Shown: one piece after another, positions 1-7,858 of the stretch
Position numbering within the stretch: the first letter of the stretch is position 1
Layout: the number at the start of each line of letters is the position of its first letter
Source of the DNA: a virus
Taxonomy: Duplodnaviria; Heunggongvirae; Uroviricota; Caudoviricetes
DNA: 7,858 nucleotides
Virus record (IMG/VR): IMGVR_UViG_2850808358_000013
Span: 1-7,858 of that record
Reading direction: 5' to 3' (one strand)
The notes under the pieces: generated by a model
What the model was told of the DNA's origin: nothing
The model's database searches: none
What the model saw: only the letters and a program-made list of their open reading frames with translations
Made by a program: the position numbers and the translations under genes

Positions 1-939
1 TTATTTGATTTCAATTTTGTCCCACTCCCTGCCTCTGTCATCACGATACTGTGATGCCATGGTGTCCGACTTGTGCCCGAGAAGATGTTGAGCAAACTTA
101 TCGCTTATCTGCTTCTCATAGAGTCTTGCAGACAAACTGCGCAACTCGTGAAAGGTAGGTGGATCCCCTTCGAAGGAAAGACCTGATGCTTTTCGTGCGC
201 GCATAAAATACCTTGATACTGTGCCGGATGAAAGCGGTTCACGACGAGTAGATGCAATTATGGTTTCTCCGCCAAGAATCTCTTTGCATTTATCAAGTGT
301 TTCCTTCATTGATATCCCGAGAGCATCAACATGCAATGTTGTAGGGATGGCAATTTTTACGCCTGTTTTGCTTTGCTCGACATAAAGATATCCATCTACG
401 ATATCAGACCACTTCATTTCGCATAAATCACCAACTCGTTGCCCGGTAACAACAGCCAGTTCCATTGCAAGTCTGAGCCAACATGGTGATGATTCTGCTG
501 CTTGATAAATTTTCAGGTATTCGTCAGCCGTAAGTCTTGATCTCCTTACCTCTGATTTTGCTGCGCGAGTGGCAGCGACCGGGTTTGTTGTTATATGGCC
601 TTCAGCTATTGCCTCTCGGAATGCATCGCTCAGTGTTGATCTGATTAACTTGGCTGATGCCGCCTTGCCCTCGTCTATGTATCCATTGAGCATTGCCGCA
701 ATTTCTTTTGTGGTGATGTCTTCAAGTGGAGCATCAGGCAGCCCCCTCCTTATTGCTTTAATTTTGCTCATGTAATTTATGAGTGTCTTCTGCTTGATTC
801 CTCTGCTGGCGAGGATTTTTTCGTAGCGAGCAAGCCATGAATGTAACGTAACAGAATTATCACTGTTGATTCTCGCTGTCAGAGGCTTGTGTTTGTGTCC
901 TGAAAATAACTCAATGTTGGCCTGTATAGCTTCAGTGAT
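1..939 (-). pseudogene. int: Lambda-type tyrosine integrase (Int), 5'-truncated remnant; the longest ATG-initiated ORF is 1..771
   Basis: Minus-strand translation ends ...HLLGHKSDTMASQYRDDRGREWDKIEIK with the stop at 1-3, which I recognise as the C-terminus of phage lambda Int; the catalytic signatures HELR, LLGH and SQY are present. My manual translation upstream of the M at 771 continues in frame (..ITEAIQANIELFSGHKHKPLTARINSDNSVTLHSWLARYEKILASRGIKQKTLINYMSKI..) up to 939, where the frame enters the IS terminus and meets a stop (955-957). About 37 N-terminal codons and the start codon are missing. Confidence 0.9.
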
Positions 940-968
940 TGAGGTAGCCTGAGTTTAACGGACACTCC
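940..968 (+). repeat. Left terminal inverted repeat of the IS600-like element
   Basis: tgaggtagcctgagtttaacggacactcc; pairs with the reverse complement of the right end (tgaggtgtactggcaatagcggacactacc), about 20 of 29 positions identical. Confidence 0.6.
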
Positions 969-1003
969 TTCCTGAAATAGAATGGCATCAGAAGGAGCTA
1001 ATA

Positions 1004-1306
1004 ATGAGCAGAAAAACCCAACGTTACTCTAAAGAGTTCAAAGCTGAAGCTGTCAGAACGGTTCTTGAAAATCAACTTTCGATCAGTGAAGGCGCTTCCC
1101 GATTATCCCTTCCTGAAGGCACTTTAGGACAATGGGTTACCGCCGCCAGAAAAGGGCTCGGTACTCCTGGTTCCCGCACGGTGGCTGAACTGGAATCTGA
1201 AATTCTGCAACTGCGTAAGGCGTTAAATGAAGCTCGCCTTGAGCGAGATATATTAAAAAAAGCAACAGCGTATTTTGCACAGGAGTCGCTGAAAAATACG
1301 CGTTAA
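1004..1306 (+). CDS. IS3-family transposase OrfA (helix-turn-helix plus leucine-zipper-like C-terminus)
   Basis: 100-aa ORF with AGGAG 6 nt upstream of the ATG; the product ends ..ERDILKKATAYFAQESLK, typical of IS3-family OrfA; the slippery run lies near its 3' end. Confidence 0.9.
   Translation: MSRKTQRYSKEFKAEAVRTVLENQLSISEGASRLSLPEGTLGQWVTAARKGLGTPGSRTVAELESEILQLRKALNEARLERDILKKATAYFAQESLKNTR
1255..1261 (+). other. Programmed -1 ribosomal frameshift site (A AAA AAA followed by G) generating the OrfAB fusion transposase
   Basis: The heptamer aaaaaaa + g at 1255-1262 sits in the orfA frame as tta-aaa-aaa-gca; the orfB frame (the frame of the ATG at 1342) is exactly -1 relative to orfA. This is the known IS3-family mechanism (established for IS911 and IS3). 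Confidence 0.6.
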
Positions 1307-1341
1307 TCGAACAATGGCGACAACAATTTCCCATTGAAGCG

Positions 1342-2160
1342 ATGTGTCAGGTATTTGGTGTATCCAGGAGCGGTTATTACAACTGGGTACAGCATGAACC
1401 CTCAGACAGAAAACAAAGTGATGAGCGGCTAAAACTGGAGATTAAGGTGGCACATATCCGCACTCGCGAAACATATGGAACCCGGCGGCTCCAGACGGAG
1501 CTGGCAGAGAATGGCATCATCGTTGGTCGTGACCGACTGGCACGTCTTCGTAAGGAGCTAAGGCTACGCTGTAAGCAGAAACGCAAGTTCAGAGCGACTA
1601 CGAACCCGAACCACAATCTGCCAGTTGCGCCAAATCTGCTGAACCAGACGTTCGCTCCTACAGCACCAAATCAGGTCTGGGTGGCGGACCTGACGTATGT
1701 TGCCACACAGGAGGGATGGTTGTACCTCGCTGGCATCAAAGATGTTTATACGTGCGAAATTGTCGGCTACGCCATGGGAGAGCGCATGACAAAAGAGCTG
1801 ACAGGTAAAGCCCTGTTTATGGCGCTCAGGAGCCAGCGCCCACCTGCCGGGCTAATCCACCACTCTGATCGAGGTTCACAGTACTGCGCATACGATTACC
1901 GGGTCATACAGGAGCAGTTTGGTCTGAAAACATCAATGTCGCGTAAAGGTAACTGTTACGACAACGCTCCGATGGAAAGCTTCTGGGGAACGCTGAAAAA
2001 TGAGAGCCTGAGCCACTATCGTTTTAATAACCGGGATGAAGCCATCTCAGTAATACGGGAATACATTGAGATTTTCTACAATCGTCAGCGTCGTCACTCT
2101 CGTCTGGGGAATATCTCCCCGGCAGCCTTCAGGGAAAAATATCATCAGATGGCTGCTTAA
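1342..2160 (+). CDS. IS3-family transposase OrfB (DDE / retroviral-integrase-like catalytic core)
   Basis: 272-aa ORF containing DDE motif elements (..VWVADLTYV.., ..HHSDRGSQY.., ..NAPMESFWGTLKNE..); it lies in the -1 frame relative to orfA. Confidence 0.9.
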   Translation: MCQVFGVSRSGYYNWVQHEPSDRKQSDERLKLEIKVAHIRTRETYGTRRLQTELAENGIIVGRDRLARLRKELRLRCKQKRKFRATTNPNHNLPVAPNLLNQTFAPTAPNQVWVADLTYVATQEGWLYLAGIKDVYTCEIVGYAMGERMTKELTGKALFMALRSQRPPAGLIHHSDRGSQYCAYDYRVIQEQFGLKTSMSRKGNCYDNAPMESFWGTLKNESLSHYRFNNRDEAISVIREYIEIFYNRQRRHSRLGNISPAAFREKYHQMAA

Positions 2161-2174
2161 AAAAAGAACAAATG

Positions 2175-2203
2175 GTAGTGTCCGCTATTGCCAGTACACC
2201 TCA
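2175..2203 (+). repeat. Right terminal inverted repeat of the IS600-like element
   Basis: ggtagtgtccgctattgccagtacacctca ends in CA-3'; its reverse complement matches the left repeat. Confidence 0.6.
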
Positions 2204-2283
2204 TTCAGTTAATGCCTCGCAGAAAAAGCGCTCCTGCTGCTTAACAAATTCAACGATATCGAACATTTTTTTGGTCCTGAAAA

Positions 2284-2565
2284 TCAGAAAGGACAGGGGG
2301 AGAATTTTCTCTCCCATTCTTCTTCCGCCCGAGCATAGGCGATCGCTGAGATATAATCGTTGTACGCCTCTTCAGCTTTTTCGCCAGTGAGTGCCAGTTG
2401 GGCTTCTTTGGGTAAAAAAAGGCTGCTCATAAGCAATGGTTTATCGGGGAACATGCTGATAAGCTCCTGCGCCCGATCATCAATCCATTTATCCTTTTCA
2501 TCCTGAATATGCTGATTAACCCAGCGACGCTCCTCTATGCGGTCGCAGGTGAGGTATGCGTTCAT
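2284..2565 (-). CDS. Hypothetical small acidic protein (93 aa), last gene of the Rha operon
   Basis: ORF with AGGAG 9 nt upstream of the ATG (reverse complement of 2566-2580); its start is 20 nt after the stop of the upstream ORF. By my count 19 D/E versus 12 K/R. No family recognised. Confidence 0.55.
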   Translation of the reverse strand: MNAYLTCDRIEERRWVNQHIQDEKDKWIDDRAQELISMFPDKPLLMSSLFLPKEAQLALTGEKAEEAYNDYISAIAYARAEEEWERKFSPCPF

Positions 2566-2585
2566 GGCGGAACTCCTGATTCCGG

Positions 2586-2867
2586 TTAATGCATTAAATT
2601 AATTTGTCGGGAAAGCTGACAGACAGGGCAGTTACATTCTTCCTCCTGCTCTTTAGCGAAGAAATATGCAGCGGCCTGTAATGCGATGTCTTCTGGATGT
2701 TCCGCGATAAACATAACATTGCCTTCCGTATCAATAACAGAAATAGCCTCATCAGGCAGGACGACAAAATAGGCGATGATTTTATCATCCATAAAAACTT
2801 CTCCCATTATCGTTTCTGCTGGCGTTATGACGTTTTTTACATTGATATTAATTTTTTGATTGAGCAT
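2586..2867 (-). CDS. Hypothetical small, strongly acidic protein (93 aa) with a C-terminal C-x-C-x-x-C motif
   Basis: ORF with AAGGA about 7 nt upstream of the ATG; its start is 11 nt after the stop of the upstream ORF. About 15 D/E versus 5 K/R; ends ..EECNCPVCQLSRQINLMH. No family recognised. Confidence 0.55.
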   Translation of the reverse strand: MLNQKININVKNVITPAETIMGEVFMDDKIIAYFVVLPDEAISVIDTEGNVMFIAEHPEDIALQAAAYFFAKEQEEECNCPVCQLSRQINLMH

Positions 2868-2878
2868 GATATTTCCTT

Positions 2879-3091
2879 TCAGGCTGGTGAGATTAACGGT
2901 TGGCCTTTATGGTTCAGGTAAACTTCGATTGCATCTGAAATAATGCGGATTTTTTCAATCAGTGAATGTGCGTAAAGTGCATTATTAACGTTAGCTGACG
3001 CCATGTAATAACGCCCGTTGTAAAGAATTGCTGTACCGGGTTTAACGTCCTCGCGAGAAACTAATGCGGTTCCGTAGTGAGGTTTGAGCAT
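2879..3091 (-). CDS. Hypothetical small protein (70 aa)
   Basis: ORF with a strong GGAGG 7 nt upstream of the ATG (reverse complement of 3092-3110: ccGGAGGatttgtcATG). Same strand and tight spacing with the neighbouring genes. Confidence 0.55.
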   Translation of the reverse strand: MLKPHYGTALVSREDVKPGTAILYNGRYYMASANVNNALYAHSLIEKIRIISDAIEVYLNHKGQPLISPA

Positions 3092-3130
3092 GACAAATCC
3101 TCCGGTTAATTAATCCAGATATTTAATTTA

Positions 3131-3153
3131 ATCCCCGATATGTGATCGGGGAT
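3131..3153 (-). other. Perfect 9-bp inverted repeat (hairpin) between the Rha gene and the 70-aa ORF
   Basis: atccccgat-atgtg-atcggggat; on the minus-strand mRNA it is followed by an A/U-rich stretch (UAAAUUAAAUAU) rather than a clean U-tract. Confidence 0.4.
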
Positions 3154-3161
3154 GGGGTTAA

Positions 3162-3800
3162 TTAAAGATTAACGTTGAAACCAAAGCGGGAAGACTTTTC
3201 CGATGTGCGGGAAATATCCAGCAATTTACGGCGCATTTCTTCCGTCAGATGCTTGAAGGCGTTAAATTCGGCGACAGCCGCATCGACGTTATAGCCGTTA
3301 CGACGTAATTCATTAAATATGCGCATTGCAGGGCTTGGCATGTCGAATAAGACGGAGGTATCAAGCTGCAATGTATTTCTATCAACATAGTTCATCGTGG
3401 CATAGGGGTGATGCTCTGAAAACCACGATAAAGGGAAATTGATATTCATCGCAGGAGAAGACAGGGCCAGTTGTTTCTGTTCCCATAGTTGTTTTTCCAT
3501 GCGATCGAATTCAGCAATGTAGGCTTCCTTGAATGCAGCTGCTTTTTTGCCGGTGAAGCCCATCACCAGAAAAACGAAGCCGTTTTTGGTGATTTGGTAG
3601 GCGTTATAGGTATTGCCTCGGTGTTCGAATTTAACCCGCGAAAAGTTGCGGGTTAAGAATTGCTCAGAGCATTCGAGGGATTCTATTTTCTGAACAACAT
3701 GGTGATGCTGCTTGCCAAAAAACTCAGCAATCGAAATAGAAGTAGTGACGGCGCGACCATTTTCGATGGTTACGTCAGGGTGAGAAAGGGTAGTAGCCAT
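3162..3800 (-). CDS. rha: Rha-family phage regulatory protein (pRha domain; antirepressor-like)
   Basis: N-terminus MATTLSHPDVTIENGRAVTTSISIAEFFGKQHHHVVQKIESL...YQITKNGFVFLVMGFTGKKAAAFKEAYIAEFDRME matches the pRha N-terminal domain as I remember it. Start chosen at ATG 3800 (GAGGA 7 nt upstream) rather than the track's 3959; the 53-codon in-frame extension is GC-rich and low-complexity. Confidence 0.8.
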   Translation of the reverse strand: MATTLSHPDVTIENGRAVTTSISIAEFFGKQHHHVVQKIESLECSEQFLTRNFSRVKFEHRGNTYNAYQITKNGFVFLVMGFTGKKAAAFKEAYIAEFDRMEKQLWEQKQLALSSPAMNINFPLSWFSEHHPYATMNYVDRNTLQLDTSVLFDMPSPAMRIFNELRRNGYNVDAAVAEFNAFKHLTEEMRRKLLDISRTSEKSSRFGFNVNL

Positions 3801-3830
3801 AATGACATCCTCAAGTGATAAGTTAATTAA

Positions 3831-3937
3831 CTCACCACCAGAGGTGCTAATCTCATGGGTGGTGAGACGCACAGGGTTAGCACTACCGGTCACTCGAGAA
3901 CCCGGCCAGCCTTGCGGCTGCCCCGCACGCCTCACCA
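3831..3937 (-). promoter_or_regulatory. Structured 5' leader of rha with three copies of a complementary motif allowing alternative hairpins
   Basis: Plus-strand ctcaccacc (3831-3839) and ggtggtgag (3858-3866) form a perfect 9-bp stem; a third copy ctcacca (3931-3937) can alternatively pair with the middle element. cagcc-ttgc-ggctg (3907-3920) is a GCAA (GNRA) tetraloop hairpin on the minus-strand RNA. Confidence 0.4.
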
Positions 3938-3961
3938 TAATTTGAATGTGGCTGTGCATTA

Positions 3962-4043
3962 CGCATAAAAAAACCGCTTCAGCGCGGTTATGCGCTCGAG
4001 TAACTTTCGGGGTGCTAATCCCGGCACCCGTTTTATGAGGTGT
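3962..4043 (-). ncRNA. Putative small RNA (about 80 nt) between a promoter-like motif and an intrinsic terminator; hypothetical
   Basis: Minus-strand -35 TTGACT (4078-4073), 17-nt spacer, -10 TATATT (4055-4050). The predicted transcript 5'-ACACCUCAUAAAACGGGUGCCGGGAUUAGCACCCCGAAAGUUACUCGAGCGCAUAACCGCGCUGAAGCGGUUUUUUU contains a 6-bp GC hairpin (4010-4029) and the terminator hairpin; no plausible ORF. Confidence 0.25.
3967..3989 (-). terminator. Rho-independent terminator acting on minus-strand transcripts
   Basis: Minus-strand RNA AACCGC-GCUGAA-GCGGUU followed by a U-run (plus-strand A-run 3967-3973); the stem is short, so moderate strength; preceded by a second hairpin. Confidence 0.45.
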
Positions 4044-4049
4044 TCGCCA

Positions 4050-4078
4050 AATATAGCCCCGACATCACACGCAGTCAA
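4050..4078 (-). promoter_or_regulatory. Sigma70-like promoter candidate P2 (TTGACT-17-TATATT) on the minus strand
   Basis: Hexamers read directly from the reverse complement; shares the 11-mer TATTGACTGCG with P1. Confidence 0.3.
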
Positions 4079-4383
4079 TATCGTCCTTTCTCGGAAATGC
4101 TTTGGCGGTGCCGCCTGCACCCAAAACATTCCCTGTATTGGTCAGCGCCAACTTCCTGCCAGTGTTGCCCGTTCTCACGCCGTTCTCGCTCTCGCGCGGG
4201 GATACTCTCTCATCGACCGGATCGCACCCGATGATACAGCACGTTTACGTGTAGGGGTCTAAACAGGTCATTGACGCTGTAAAGCTCCAGATTGTTAAAG
4301 AGCATTTTGCGGCGGGTTAAGTCGCGCCGTACGACTGATTTATGTAGCCCTGTGTCAGGGCGCGATGTTTCTGGCTTGGGTAA

Positions 4384-4413
4384 AATATAATAAGTGCAAC
4401 TGATCGCAGTCAA
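4384..4413 (-). promoter_or_regulatory. Sigma70-like promoter candidate P1 (TTGACT-18-TATATT) on the minus strand
   Basis: Reverse complement of agtcaa (4408-4413) and aatata (4384-4389); sits in an AT-rich block; the same TATTGACTGCG 11-mer as P2, about 335 bp upstream of it. Confidence 0.25.
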
Positions 4414-4641
4414 TAGCAAGACTAATAATTTAATTTTAATCTATGTGATTGATTTTTAGATTAATTTATTTATGTAAAAAATATAAGCGAGGATAATGCA
4501 GGTGGTGAGTTATGGAGGATGCGCAAAGAAAAAACGGCGCTGAGGCCGGTTACTCTGTGTTAGATTTGGTGTGAGGGAACCCCTGATAACACTAAGAAAA
4601 GCAGTGAACAGTCAAAGAGAACCCAGCGGGCTTGGTGGCTT

Positions 4642-4670
4642 TTGACAAAAACATCGCCTGTAACTATAAT
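4642..4670 (+). promoter_or_regulatory. Consensus sigma70 promoter for the hicAB-like operon (TTGACA-17-TATAAT)
   Basis: ttgaca at 4642-4647, 17-nt spacer, tataat at 4665-4670. The palindrome aacta-taat-tagtt overlaps the -10 and is a candidate autoregulatory operator. Confidence 0.6.
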
Positions 4671-4699
4671 TAGTTGCAATGTAGCGAAGATGAGATTAT

Positions 4700-4954
4700 G
4701 TGGGTATGGGGAAAGCAGATAAGCTACTGGAAAAGTTTTTAAACAGTAAAAAAACGTTTGAATGGGATGAGTTGGTCGTTTTGTTTTCCTCTCTGGGATA
4801 TGTCAAAAAGGAAATGCAGGGCTCAAGAGTGCGGTTTTTCAATGCTGAAATCAACCACACCATATTAATGCATCGCCCACATCCAGAAAGTTATATTAAA
4901 GGTGGAACGCTGAAAGCGATTAAACAGAATCTGAAAGAGGCTGGGGTATTATGA
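4700..4954 (+). CDS. hicA: HicA-family toxin-like protein (YcfA/HicA fold, putative mRNA interferase); initiation may be at ATG 4706
   Basis: ..KADKLLEKFLNSKKTFEWDELVVLFSSLGY..QGSRVRFFNAEINHTILMHRPHPESYIKGGTLKAIKQNLKEAGVL fits the HicA pattern as I remember it; the stop overlaps the next start (ATGA at 4951-4954). The track start is GTG 4700. Confidence 0.7.
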   Translation: MGMGKADKLLEKFLNSKKTFEWDELVVLFSSLGYVKKEMQGSRVRFFNAEINHTILMHRPHPESYIKGGTLKAIKQNLKEAGVL

Positions 4955-5295
4955 ATCATCTAAAATATAAAGGATATTTAGGTACAGTAGAACCAGATTT
5001 TGAAAATAATATCCTGTACGGAAAACTGGCGTTTATTCGAGACCTGGTAACTTATGAGGCTTCTACATTAGCTGAACTGGAACAGGAGTTTAAGACATCG
5101 GTTGAGCTGTATTTACAGTCTTGTGTGGAGGATGGAAAGGAGCCTGATACCCCGTTTAAAGGTGTGTTTAACGTCAGACTTGATCCAGAACTGCATCGTC
5201 GGGTCGCTGAAATGGCGATGGAAGAAGATTTATCACTGAACGCCTTTGTTAATAAGGCGCTGGAAAAAGAAGTCAACCATCACACAGGGGCTTAA
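4951..5295 (+). CDS. hicB: HicB-family antitoxin-like protein with a C-terminal ribbon-helix-helix DNA-binding domain
   Basis: N-terminal YKGYLGTVEPDFENNILYGKLAFIRDL..EEPDTPF resembles HicB N-domains; C-terminal KGVFNVRLDPELHRRVAEMAMEEDLSLNAFVNKALEKEV is RHH-like; 4-bp overlap with hicA. Confidence 0.7.
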   Translation: MNHLKYKGYLGTVEPDFENNILYGKLAFIRDLVTYEASTLAELEQEFKTSVELYLQSCVEDGKEPDTPFKGVFNVRLDPELHRRVAEMAMEEDLSLNAFVNKALEKEVNHHTGA

Positions 5296-5382
5296 TGTTC
5301 CCTTCGTCTTTGACATCCTCACCGCCGAAGAATGGGGAATTTACGGCGCACTGGTAAATGGTGGGGCGAGCAGGAGGCAAAC

Positions 5383-5408
5383 AAAACCCGGCACCAAGGC
5401 CGGGTTTT
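5383..5408. terminator. Bidirectional Rho-independent terminator between the convergent hicAB-like operon and the repressor operon
   Basis: aaaacccggc-accaag-gccgggtttt: a perfect 10-bp stem with a 6-bp GC core and a 6-nt loop, with an A-run upstream and TTTTGTT downstream, so a U-tract follows on both strands. Confidence 0.6.
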
Positions 5409-5409
5409 G

Positions 5410-5580
5410 TTATTGGTGCATTTGGCAGGTTGTAATATCTGGTCCATAAGCCAAAGTAAAAACAGGCTTGTTGATCAAGCCCATGTTCTTTAATGATTGA
5501 ATCATTTTTCCTTGCTCGCTAACTTTTTGCTTGCTAAGTATTTCTTCCACTTGTTGTGTCAAGGATTTGTCTTTGTTCAT
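5410..5580 (-). CDS. Unlisted 56-codon ORF between the repressor gene and the terminator; hypothetical
   Basis: Manual translation of the minus strand gives MNKDKSLTQQVEEILSKQKVSEQGKMIQSLKNMGLINKPVFTLAYGPDITTCQMHQ; the stop lies 2 nt from the terminator stem; only a weak GTGAG Shine-Dalgarno. Below the ORF-track length cutoff. Confidence 0.3.
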   Translation of the reverse strand: MNKDKSLTQQVEEILSKQKVSEQGKMIQSLKNMGLINKPVFTLAYGPDITTCQMHQ

Positions 5581-5701
5581 TTATGGCTCACTTGATTGCG
5601 ACTGCTCCCCGCCCGCATTGGGCGAGGGTTCTCGGAGATTTTTCGCTGAAAAAGGAAATAAAATAGCCTCCCTGCAAGGTTATTGATATCATCCTGTGAG
5701 T

Positions 5702-6421
5702 TCAATCAAAAGTCTCATCATTCCACTGCGACTTTATGACCTTTCCGACAAACGGGCAGTTTTCGTTACACTCAATCATGTCGAATCGTGGGTTGAGTGG
5801 CTCCAGGTACGCTTTACCGCTCTCACGAATGAATCGTTTGAAGGTGAATTCATCGCCATTCATTCGGGCCACGCAAAAATCGCCATCCTCAATCTCCCGC
5901 TCAGGGTCAACGAGTATCAGCATCCCTTCGGGGAAACTGGGTTTACCACCCTGCGGCGCGGTCATTGAATGCCCCTTGACCTCCAGCCAGAACGACCTGT
6001 CACTGGCTTTTGTGGTGGTGGAGATCCACTTAATCGCATCCTTTGCGGTGTACGAAAAATCATCCATTGAGAAAGCTCCAGCCTGTACGCAGGAGAGTAA
6101 CGGATATTCGTAATATTTCTCGAACAGGTTACGCCTGTTTCCCGGTGTGTGGGTACGAATACTGCGTAACAAATCACTCAGATCTGGATTAATTTCTTCC
6201 GCAGGAACCTGTAATAAAGCCGCAAACTTAAGGGTATTTTCAGTATTTAACGCAATTTTTGCGTTCAATAACTGACTAACAGCCCCCTGCGTTTTGAAGC
6301 CGAGGATATCTGCGGCTTTTTCCTGGCTTAGGGATAGCTGTTTCCGTTTTTCATCCCAGATTTTGCGCAGTCGTTCAGCGTTCTGGATGTCTTTGTCAGT
6401 AATTGTAATTTTCTTCGTCAT
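5702..6421 (-). CDS. cI: Lambda cI-like prophage repressor (N-terminal HTH, C-terminal LexA/S24 autopeptidase domain)
   Basis: The C-terminal half is nearly colinear with lambda cI as I recall it (..[16 protein letters not shown].., ..[30 protein letters not shown].., ..[13 protein letters not shown].., ..[14 protein letters not shown]); Ala-Gly cleavage site, Ser (GHSM) and Lys (FKRF) all present. Start set at ATG 6421 (GGAGG 4 nt upstream) rather than the track's 6460. Confidence 0.9.
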
Positions 6422-6472
6422 AGTGCCTCCAATTTTATTAGCAACACAAATATTTATCAAATAGCTGGCCTG

Positions 6473-6500
6473 TTGACATTTAAATCAGGTAAGCTAATAT
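6473..6500 (+). promoter_or_regulatory. pR-like sigma70 promoter for the cro-like gene (TTGACA-16-TAATAT) in the divergent repressor/cro intergenic region
   Basis: ttgaca at 6473-6478 and taatat at 6495-6500; GGGAGG 6 nt before the ATG at 6527; the palindrome atttaaat lies in the spacer. The leftward repressor promoter and the operators were not resolved. Confidence 0.5.
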
Positions 6501-6526
6501 CGGAAAATTGAAATGGGAGGATCTCT

Positions 6527-6766
6527 ATGACTCTTGACGAGTACTTGAGACAAAGCTCTATCAGACAAGCCGATTTTGCGGCGATTGTTGGAGTTTCTCA
6601 GGGATTTGTCAGTGGGGTTATTACAGGGAGATACATGCCTCAGGGGCGGAAAGCCATTGAATGGGCAAAAGCTACAGACTGGAATGTAACTCCCCATGAA
6701 CTAAACCCGCATGACTACCTAAACATGGAAGATGGTATTCCGCTTCATGTAAGGCAAACAGCCTGA
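6527..6766 (+). CDS. Cro / YdaS-like small HTH regulator (79 aa)
   Basis: Divergent from the repressor gene with a strong SD; ..IRQADFAAIVGVSQGFVSGVITGRYMPQGRKAIEWAKATDWNVTPHELNPHDY fits the Cro/YdaS-type HTH pattern as I remember it. Confidence 0.7.
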   Translation: MTLDEYLRQSSIRQADFAAIVGVSQGFVSGVITGRYMPQGRKAIEWAKATDWNVTPHELNPHDYLNMEDGIPLHVRQTA

Positions 6767-6770
6767 TAAC

Positions 6771-6783
6771 CCTCCATCGGAGG
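6771..6783 (+). promoter_or_regulatory. Hairpin that pairs the Shine-Dalgarno sequence of the downstream ORF with an anti-SD
   Basis: cctcc-atc-ggagg: a perfect 5-bp stem whose 3' arm GGAGG is the SD located 5 nt upstream of the GTG start at 6789; it begins 5 nt after the cro-like stop. Confidence 0.4.
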
Positions 6784-6788
6784 TGTGA

Positions 6789-7070
6789 GTGAACAGGCAA
6801 ATCAAAACGGTTATGCCCGATCAGTACTGTGATGCTGATCGGGACTGGATACAGGAGCAATTGTTACAGCTAGACCCGACCACCAGGGTAAAAATTGCAG
6901 CAGAGTACGCGAGAGTGTACCAGGAAGAGTGGGACAAGGAGCCTGTATCGTTCAGGAAGGGCAACAGGGCAAGACGGAGCGCCAACACCCGGTTACGGGT
7001 GTATGTCCAGAAGTACGCGAGAGCCAGCCGTGGCTGGATGTTTTCGCCAGTAGCGATACGGAAGGAATAG
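6789..7070 (+). CDS. Hypothetical protein (93 aa; GTG start) in the position of cII / early-right genes; basic C-terminal half
   Basis: ORF directly downstream of the cro-like gene with GGAGG at -5; product ..DRDWIQEQLLQLDPTTRVKIAAEYARVYQEEWDKEP..RKGNRARRSANTRLRVYVQKYARASRGW..; no family recognised. An alternative ATG lies at 6813. Confidence 0.5.
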   Translation: MNRQIKTVMPDQYCDADRDWIQEQLLQLDPTTRVKIAAEYARVYQEEWDKEPVSFRKGNRARRSANTRLRVYVQKYARASRGWMFSPVAIRKE

Positions 7071-7096
7071 ATCTCATCAAGGTTATTATTTTTTTG

Positions 7097-7141
7097 TGAA
7101 ATGATTTCGCATGAAATCATTGCGCTTGAAATTTTACTAAG
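7097..7141. repeat. Three TGAAAT motifs at exact 15-bp spacing, with an embedded 9-bp inverted repeat
   Basis: TGAAAT at 7097, 7112 and 7127; units 1 and 2 match at 12 of 15 positions; inverted repeat aatgatttc (7100-7108) / gaaatcatt (7113-7121) with a 4-nt spacer; preceded by a T7 run and followed by tandem AAGGGGGT / AAGGGGGC (7142-7157). Confidence 0.45.
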
Positions 7142-7307
7142 AAGGGGGTAAGGGGGCAGATCTGTAACATCCGTGCCTGTAAGGGCACTACCAGAGGAAG
7201 GCAGCTCCATAGGTTAGGTAGATCACTGTATAGGGTGAGATGGTTTCTGACGAAATTGTTATTATGCTAACCATTACGGTAGAAATAGTACCATACTCAT
7301 CAAACAT

Positions 7308-7483
7308 GTGGTTATCAGCCTGCTCGGAAACAAATTCTACACCGGAAAAGACAAGGTCACGTTTGATTATGTGCTGGCTGCCAAATTGCGTGATGCCGGA
7401 CTGGCGATCGAACGTAATTATCTGGTTGATATGGCAACGGTAAGCGCGGATTCGTCGATATCATGGTCGTTGCCCCATCTGGT
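7308..7483 (+). pseudogene. Fragment of an unidentified gene, 3'-truncated by the IS911 insertion
   Basis: Protein-like frame ..GNKFYTGKDKVTFDYVLAAKLRDAGLAIERNYLVDMATVSADSSISWSLPHL runs straight into the IS terminus at 7484; the final residues and stop of the track ORF are encoded by the IS end. No convincing start or RBS (GTG at 7308 only). Confidence 0.35.

Positions 7484-7858
<375 letters not shown>

Follow-up and report, generated by a model that had tools for sequence, protein, structure and literature searches.

The leftward gene cluster at positions 2284-3800 of a 7,858-nucleotide (nt) stretch of viral DNA (IMG/VR record IMGVR_UViG_2850808358_000013, positions 1 to 7,858; hereafter the window) very probably forms the promoter-proximal portion of the early-left operon in a lambdoid prophage of the Shiga toxin (Stx) type, similar to phages TL-2011c and P13374, with roles in host takeover and recombination. 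It is a known kind of operon and represents mostly textbook lambdoid biology, with one uncharacterised and lineage-restricted gene, here termed the orphan, at 2586-2867 on the minus strand. The order of elements is a putative promoter, an IsrK-like RNA, a C4 RNA, rha, kil, the orphan, gamL and a recT gene cut by an insertion sequence (IS). The order rha, kil, orphan, gamL, recT, exo is given in the annotation of Stx phages and of STEC (Shiga toxin-producing E. coli) genomes, and analogous gene orders are found in phi80, in the Rac prophage and in Klebsiella phages.

Four open reading frames (ORFs) are located on the minus strand at 3162-3800 (rha), 2879-3091 (kil), 2586-2867 (orphan) and 2284-2565 (gamL). 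A preceding sequence-only reading of the same DNA had described them at these coordinates as same-strand genes with gaps of 11 and 20 nt between the small ORFs, each with its own Shine-Dalgarno (SD) motif, and all of this was confirmed. The gaps are 70 nt for rha-kil, 11 nt for kil-orphan (2868-2878) and 20 nt for orphan-gamL (2566-2585), and every ATG carries an SD-like motif 7-8 nt on its 5' side (GAGGA, GGAGGA, AAGGA and AGGAG). That reading had also counted net charges of about -10 and -7 for the two products of 93 amino acids (aa), and a recount as K+R-D-E yielded identical values, with an isoelectric point (pI) of 4.27 for the product of 2586-2867 and of 4.66 for that of 2284-2565. The C-x-C-x-x-C cluster which it noticed corresponds to C78-N-C80-P-V-C83, near the C-terminus of the -10 protein. 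The 70-aa product of 2879-3091 is basic, with a net charge of +2. Finally, the leftward operon with a Rha-family gene in front, as proposed there, was borne out, and it is an early operon; the rha product has a Phage_pRha domain, scoring 92 bits with Pfam PF09669 (gathering score 29.9) and 89.5 bits with TIGR02681 (cut-off 45.95).

Matching DNA occurs in 112 phage records, mostly of Stx2a-converting phages that include TL-2011c, the O104:H4 phage P13374 and its relatives, PA2, PA8 and Ss-VASD, and in 686 of 5,426 complete E. coli genomes. A first set of 34 loci, made up of two annotated records and 32 IMG/VR loci, was later supplemented with eight NCBI loci, and the final set comprised 43 loci. 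The genes kil, orphan and gamL are present together and with identical spacing throughout the first set (34 of 34). In the final set the kil and orphan ORFs are intact in 43 of 43 loci and gamL in 39, the other four showing two 1-nt deletions and two IS truncations. Against an expectation of about 80% nonsynonymous changes, the variable sites divide into 13 synonymous and 6 nonsynonymous for kil (binomial P=4.5e-5), 16 and 17 for the orphan (P=2e-4) and 13 and 6 for gamL (P=5e-6), and the pooled pN/pS ratios are 0.12, 0.23 and 0.12, respectively. Because their ORFs are intact in all or most loci, their spacing is fixed and synonymous changes are in excess, all three are protein-coding genes under purifying selection rather than chance ORFs. 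The lack of conservation which the sequence-only reading had considered as a possible outcome is seen for none of them (pN/pS 0.12-0.23).

The gene at 2284-2565 encodes GamL, a predicted host nuclease (RecBCD/SbcCD) inhibitor of the phi80 type. Its product matches the NCBIfam equivalog NF033500 (phi80_GamL) with 147.9 bits, for a cut-off of 40, over positions 1-88 of the 89 in the profile, and it is 74% identical to phi80 GamL, which is annotated in the phi80 record as "host RecBCD/SbcCD enzymes inhibitor, toxic without Mog". Members of the GamL family carry a precomputed match to PF28165. According to a 2025 survey, which cites Rotman et al. 2012 on the phi80 protein, lambdoid phages have four types of anti-RecBCD protein, of which GamL is one, with a predicted lambda Gam fold (PMC12315714). 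In an alignment of 26 members, 48-97% identical, M1, A3, E11, D29, P40, E66, Y68, A80, W84 and F93 are invariant, and D8, I10, C91 and P92 are nearly so. The window protein shows the family traits, namely a length of about 92-94 aa, an N-terminal M-x-A...D-x-I-E motif and a C-terminal C-P-F. Its AlphaFold2 (AF2) model, with a predicted local distance difference test (pLDDT) score of 86.5, consists of two long helices, and in a Foldseek search of the PDB ranks 1-4 were all lambda GamS with template modelling (TM) scores of 0.72-0.75; for 5mbv_A the TM-scores were 0.75/0.72 and the Foldseek probability 1.00. A profile of the 26 sequences also found lambda Gam as its best PDB match, via the N-terminal MNAY..DR(I/L)E..W motif. 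The recT remnant starts 17 nt after gamL, and in intact relatives gamL is likewise followed by recT, with the same 17-nt distance in their gene calls.

The kil product, 70 aa in length, is a predicted cell-division (FtsZ) inhibitor of the KilR type. It matches PHROG 294, "Kil protein for bacterial septation inhibition", with E 2.8e-32, and BLASTP alignments that span almost the whole protein give identities of 38% with Rac KilR (E 8e-13) and 39% with phi80 Kil (E 1.2e-11). An identical product carries a precomputed match to Pfam PF27398 (KilR), and RefSeq names the protein "cell division inhibitor protein". Rac KilR is reported to block FtsZ ring formation or to cause filamentation (PMC12482147). 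By analogy, the window protein would arrest division of the host cell. The cargo of the operon would then be the functional equivalent of lambda kil-gam-bet-exo, with Kil blocking host division and the acidic, helical, Gam-like GamL blocking RecBCD/SbcCD, so that linear DNA of the phage and the intermediates of RecT/Exo recombination are spared.

At the head of the operon, rha encodes an antirepressor-like regulator of 212 aa, the C-terminal half of which matches PHROG antirepressor families. The start at 3800 is the one with an SD motif in front. A longer in-frame ORF, at 3162-3959 and coding for 265 aa, reads through the C4 RNA gene, and a Pfam Phage_ASH match (49 bits) is confined to the extension at 3801-3959; both the long reading and the match were rejected as the main reading since the extension is the C4 RNA gene. 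An ATG at 3938, inside C4, corresponds in position to orf45 of Gifsy-1 and is in frame with rha with no intervening stop. Public annotations of "Rha" with 257-300 aa probably contain the translated RNA gene, or else denote an N-extended isoform. Between loci, identity is 72-90% for rha together with the RNA cassette, rha by itself being at 80-90%, as compared with 96-100% for kil, orphan and gamL, and some loci have an extra gene between rha and the kil block or, in place of rha, a version with another N-terminal domain. Given these differing identities and the extra genes, the rha head and the kil-orphan-gamL-recT block are separate mosaic units rather than a single module inherited together. 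The 70-nt rha-kil gap contains a hairpin, CCCCGAT-CACAT-ATCGGGG (3133-3151, minus strand), read directly from the DNA, which has no T-run and was not called by a terminator scan; it seems to sit at the mosaic boundary where the variable rha block gives way to the strongly conserved block of kil, orphan and gamL.

The region directly upstream of rha, beyond the coordinates covered by the sequence-only reading, carries an RNA cassette. A sigma-70 promoter-like site on the minus strand, TTGACT-17-TATATT (4050-4078), with 10 of 12 matches to the consensus, ends 7 nt on the 5' side of the IsrK-like RNA, is kept in all related loci and is the likely promoter of an isrK-C4-rha transcript. The small IsrK-like RNA itself (3967-4043, minus strand) was identified with Rfam RF01394 at 61.6 bits (gathering score 50) and carries its own terminator-like hairpin followed by seven T (3972-3989). 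Downstream lies a C4-type antisense RNA (3855-3942, minus strand) which matches RF01695 over its full length with 78.6 bits (gathering score 45), and the rha leader (3801-3854, minus strand) separates it from the gene. The c4-a1b1 model RF03163 gives a weak match at 4004-4056, with 17.5 bits for a cut-off of 46.7, where Gifsy-1 scores 48.1 bits.

The C4 RNA and its two neighbours are linked by complementary segments, all on the minus strand. A single-stranded stretch of C4, AGUGCUAA (3877-3884), contains the a' segment GUGCUAA, which is complementary to UUAGCAC both in the leader (a2, 3844-3850) and in the IsrK-like RNA (a1, 4012-4018). The 12-nt loop b' of C4 as read from the fold, GUUCUCGAGUGA (3890-3901), is complementary, with three G-U pairs, to b2 in the leader, UCACUUGAGGAU (3807-3818), across the rha SD motif GAGGA (3808-3812), and the corresponding complementary segment b1 in the IsrK-like RNA is UUACUCGAG (3995-4003). 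A second allelic type, represented by F039, by E. coli 97-3250 and by several IMG/VR loci, carries GUCCUAA in C4 together with UUAGGAC in both the leader and the IsrK targets, and its C4 loop CCCUUGAUUG is matched by CAAUCAAGG in the leader and by CAAUCGAGG in IsrK. This three-way covariation of C4, leader and IsrK splits seven unique sequences into two allelic types. Separately, a third variant was seen in IMGVR_UViG_2826316604_000007 (L007), where, in the region aligned to 3844-3884, the C4 a' reads GTAGCAA and the leader a2 reads TTAGCTAC; this is a partial compensatory change and the a1 copy in IsrK is unchanged. Energies of whole-molecule C4/leader duplexes, in a calculation that ignores the C4 fold, were undiscriminating since other parts of the mRNA scored equally, and we therefore rely on the loop-specific complementarity and the covariation.

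By analogy with known C4 systems, C4 processed from the same transcript would use its two exposed segments to pair with the rha leader, covering the rha SD motif, and translation of the antirepressor-like Rha would thereby be kept off. The upstream IsrK-like RNA, with decoy copies of both targets, could relieve the block. No LexA box was found near the isrK promoter-like site or in 4130-4611, and SOS control was rejected. On the 5' side of this site lies a conserved stretch of about 480 nt that seems to be non-coding (4130-4611) and that contains a second promoter-like site on the minus strand (4413-4384), which shares the 11-nt TATTGACTGCG with the first.

A few results weigh against the assignment as an early-left operon of this kind. 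The Foldseek match of GamL to GamS has an E-value of just 0.14 and the sequence profile match to lambda Gam one of 0.066; the case for a Gam-like protein is built on rank, TM-score and the equivalog hidden Markov model (HMM) and not on either E-value alone. The NCBIfam model for the KilR subfamily, NF008465 / PRK11354 (FtsZ inhibitor), gives 67.4 bits, below its cut-off of 92, which makes Kil a divergent KilR-type protein outside this narrow subfamily. Moreover, transcription of kil-orphan-gamL may start further upstream or at an unrecognised promoter in the rha-kil gap, and other phages with GamL (phi80 and Klebsiella phages) carry no orphan, such that GamL is not strictly dependent on it.

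The orphan is uncharacterised and is the sole such gene among the four. Its product (93 aa, pI 4.3) belongs to PHROG 1635, a family of unknown function, and is predicted to form a five-stranded beta sheet followed by two C-terminal helices. Searches against Pfam, NCBIfam, PADLOC and PDB sequences gave no match, nothing informative came from comparisons of sequence or fold, and a literature search on it found nothing. A word-indexed search yielded homologues that are all at least 86% identical and exclusive to E. coli and Shigella, together with frameshifted variants. When 1.84 billion representatives were searched exhaustively with HMMER, the only additions were large repeat proteins (NHL and similar), and these were judged to be spurious because their scores were sums of weak repeat matches. 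Among 185,579 species-representative genomes none encodes the protein. The gene is present in 98 phage records, always with at least 90% identity, and the same number carry a near-identical gamL (at least 90%) and a near-identical kil (at least 95%). It invariably lies between kil and gamL and is limited to Stx-type phages of E. coli and Shigella, and it constitutes an insertion at this position that is specific to the Stx-type lineage.

Tentatively, and with less than even confidence, we regard the orphan product as a protein-binding accessory factor of the anti-nuclease and recombination set. In this role it would act alongside GamL to inhibit or modulate a protein of the host's DNA-end processing or defence, possibly with a metal site formed by its three cysteines. 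It is conceivable, if rather doubtful, that it constitutes a new small phage inhibitor or modulator specific to the Stx2a lineage, including the O104:H4 outbreak phage, that either neutralises a host nuclease or defence protein beyond the reach of GamL or acts as a compact GamL-tuning partner which replaces Mog.

Mog also provides the starting point for the possibility that the orphan is an antidote to the toxicity of its neighbours, either as a functional replacement of phi80 Mog or as a brake on Kil. In phi80 the gene directly upstream of gamL is agt/Mog, described as an "anti-toxin for Gam", with gamL being "toxic without Mog", and in a Klebsiella phage the same slot is held by a gene of 323 aa, noted as TolA-like and similar in length to Mog. 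In the Stx-type phages it is the orphan that occupies the Mog slot, 20 nt upstream of gamL, and orphan and gamL are inherited as one block. However, the orphan shows no sequence similarity to Mog (best BLASTP E 2.8-3.6), the sizes of 93 and 322 aa do not correspond, and in Klebsiella phages KO-TP1 and RAH1 kil is directly beside gamL, which implies that GamL does not in general depend on a partner. We consider an antidote role to be unlikely.

We assign a similarly low probability to the orphan being a distant relative of RacC, within an old family of accessory proteins of recombination modules, a kinship that would be compatible with either an accessory or an antidote function. RacC (91 aa), from the Rac prophage, holds the same operon position, between kilR and recE, and when the orphan was compared with the positional analogues phi80 Mog, phi80 gp41, Rac YdaE and RacC, a weak signal was obtained with RacC only, the similarity to YdaE being at chance level. 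Residues 17-50 of the orphan align in hhalign with residues 12-47 of RacC over 34 columns (P 0.0097), sharing D/E-x-I-x-x-E-V ... V-x-D-x-x-G, and only 2% of column-shuffled controls reach this score. Nevertheless, hhalign assigns a probability of only 4%, the two families were not linked in the exhaustive HMMER search, and the comparison was picked after about five positional analogues, which brings the corrected significance to about 0.1. RacC itself is without known function, so kinship would leave the mechanism unexplained, and the likeness is a lead and not a finding.

The sequence-only reading had favoured a broader interpretation, in which Rha and the three small ORFs, none of which it recognised, form a new anti-restriction or anti-defence accessory module, and this we now consider improbable. 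Two products are indeed strongly acidic, GamL is expected from its relatives to block a host nuclease that doubles as a defence hub, and the orphan, like many anti-defence genes, is lineage-restricted and without assigned function. The idea of anti-defence DNA mimics or of proteins for host takeover holds up in general terms for two of the genes, gamL and the KilR-type kil, but GamL is already known. Both belong to named families that are annotated in hundreds of genomes, and two of the three small ORFs thus have clear homologues among phage proteins, although these are accessory rather than structural. Furthermore, rha and the small genes are in different mosaic blocks, which speaks against a module tied to rha, and no PADLOC defence-system model matches any of the four operon proteins. 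The orphan shares the strong negative charge of acidic DNA mimics but has no fold or sequence similarity to the known ones (Ocr, ArdA, gp5.9 and similar). As a module, the proposal is already largely refuted.

That the orphan is a DNA-binding transcription regulator of the AbrB type is highly improbable: several NCBI entries, 87-97% identical to it, and one phage record bear the name "AbrB family transcriptional regulator", but a SpoVT/AbrB-type domain is not detectable by HMM or by fold, and the name is without support, current RefSeq calling the protein hypothetical.

The orphan is conserved under purifying selection in clinically important Stx2a phages of the TL-2011c/P13374 type, and its location inside a recombination and anti-RecBCD block makes it a well-defined target for experiment. 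The presence of a P1-type C4 antisense cassette at the head of a Rha-Kil-GamL-RecT operon, in at least two co-varying specificity types, suggests that during induction of Stx phages the antirepressor, and perhaps the recombination genes as well, is under an RNA-based and allele-specific control of expression. If true, such control could bear on toxin release.

In the genome from which the window derives, the operon is vestigial and the prophage a decaying remnant, since an IS has removed recT, exo, xis and the N-terminus of int and further decay is seen in identical remnants. Homology to the Stx phages ends at 2204, inside the RecT of relatives, and the recT remnant (2204-2266, minus strand) retains the first 21 codons. 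It is cut there by an IS3-family element (1004-2203, plus strand), which removed the rest of recT, exo, xis and the start of int; the int ORF (1-771) has only 256 aa left. A second IS3-family element (7520-7858, plus strand), with orfA at the window end, stands in for the replication region after the gene at the cII position, and the two elements bracket the prophage remnant on both sides. The identical remnant is present in several NCBI genomes, beside genes for a pectinesterase-domain protein and for an aconitase. Decay is progressive among the near-identical remnant copies (L004, L005 and L040-L047): rha is split or carries a W-to-stop change, cI is split into 51 + 121 aa, and gamL either has been shortened to 31 aa by an IS or has lost 1 nt. 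In every copy, kil and the orphan are intact.

Other features of the window lie outside the operon. A hicA/hicB toxin-antitoxin pair (4700-5295, plus strand) separates cI from the leftward operon, runs in the direction opposite to the latter and is preceded by a perfect TTGACA-17-TATAAT promoter-like site (4642-4670); related Stx phages instead have a restriction-modification system and a Panacea-domain gene at this place. The ORF at the cII position, downstream of cro (6789-7070, plus strand), encodes 93 aa and belongs to PHROG 852, of unknown function, with no Pfam or NCBIfam match.

The closest parallels to the cargo are found among lambdoid phages. The lambda pL segment has the order kil-gam-bet-exo and the Rac prophage the order kilR-ydaE-racC-recE-recT, and both show the same succession of functions as the window operon, with a division inhibitor, a small accessory or anti-nuclease protein, an annealing protein and an exonuclease. 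Most of the proteins are, however, non-homologous analogues, and the orphan has no lambda counterpart and only its weak resemblance to RacC. Lambda Kil, which we take to be unrelated to the window Kil, is an analogue in position and function only, whereas Rac KilR and phi80 Kil share with it a length of about 70 aa and a location upstream of anti-nuclease and recombinase genes. Lambda Gam (PDB 2UUZ, 5MBV) has its sequence similarity to GamL limited to about 35 N-terminal residues, although the window GamL is acidic and helical with a predicted fold that is nearest to GamS. In the Rac prophage of E. coli K-12 (L036, 6489-7230) we observed kilR, ydaE (zinc-binding, 56 aa) and racC (91 aa) in the kil-orphan slot.

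In phi80, GamL is likewise a protein of 93 aa with an MNAYLT.DRIE N-terminus and a C-terminal CPF, encoded directly upstream of recT. The difference lies on the other side of the gene, where phi80 has gp41 and the 322-aa Mog between kil and gamL while the window has the 93-aa orphan; Mog/agt adjoins gamL as the orphan does but is rich in E/A/R/K and dissimilar to it. In KO-TP1 and RAH1 there is nothing between kil and gamL.

For the RNA cassette, the relevant systems are the immI regions of P1 and P7, which show the same a1b1 / C4 / a2b2 architecture and include the genes icd and ant. In P1, C4 represses translation of the downstream gene, and the immI operon also holds a cell-division inhibitor, icd, as the window operon does with kil. 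The window, P1 immI and Gifsy-1 share a one-strand layout of promoter, IsrK/a1b1 with terminator, C4 and a leader with a2/b2 across the ribosome-binding site of an antirepressor-like gene, and in Gifsy-1 the isrK / c4-a1b1 / C4 elements precede the antirepressor-like AnrP as they precede rha here. For Gifsy-1 it was shown experimentally that read-through of the IsrK terminator generates a translationally silent mRNA which is activated in trans by the short IsrK (PMC4825925). There are also differences. The separate orf45 (STnc1160) of Gifsy-1 is translationally coupled to anrP, whereas the ORF internal to C4 in the window is in frame with rha. Moreover, the Gifsy-1 cassette is located downstream of the Q-like antiterminator gene antQ (STM2617) and not in an early-left position, while that of the window heads recombination genes. 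AnrP (STM2616) and the window Rha show no BLASTP similarity (best E 2.2) and, because the two regulators lack homology, the window combines the same RNA cassette as Gifsy-1 with a different cargo.

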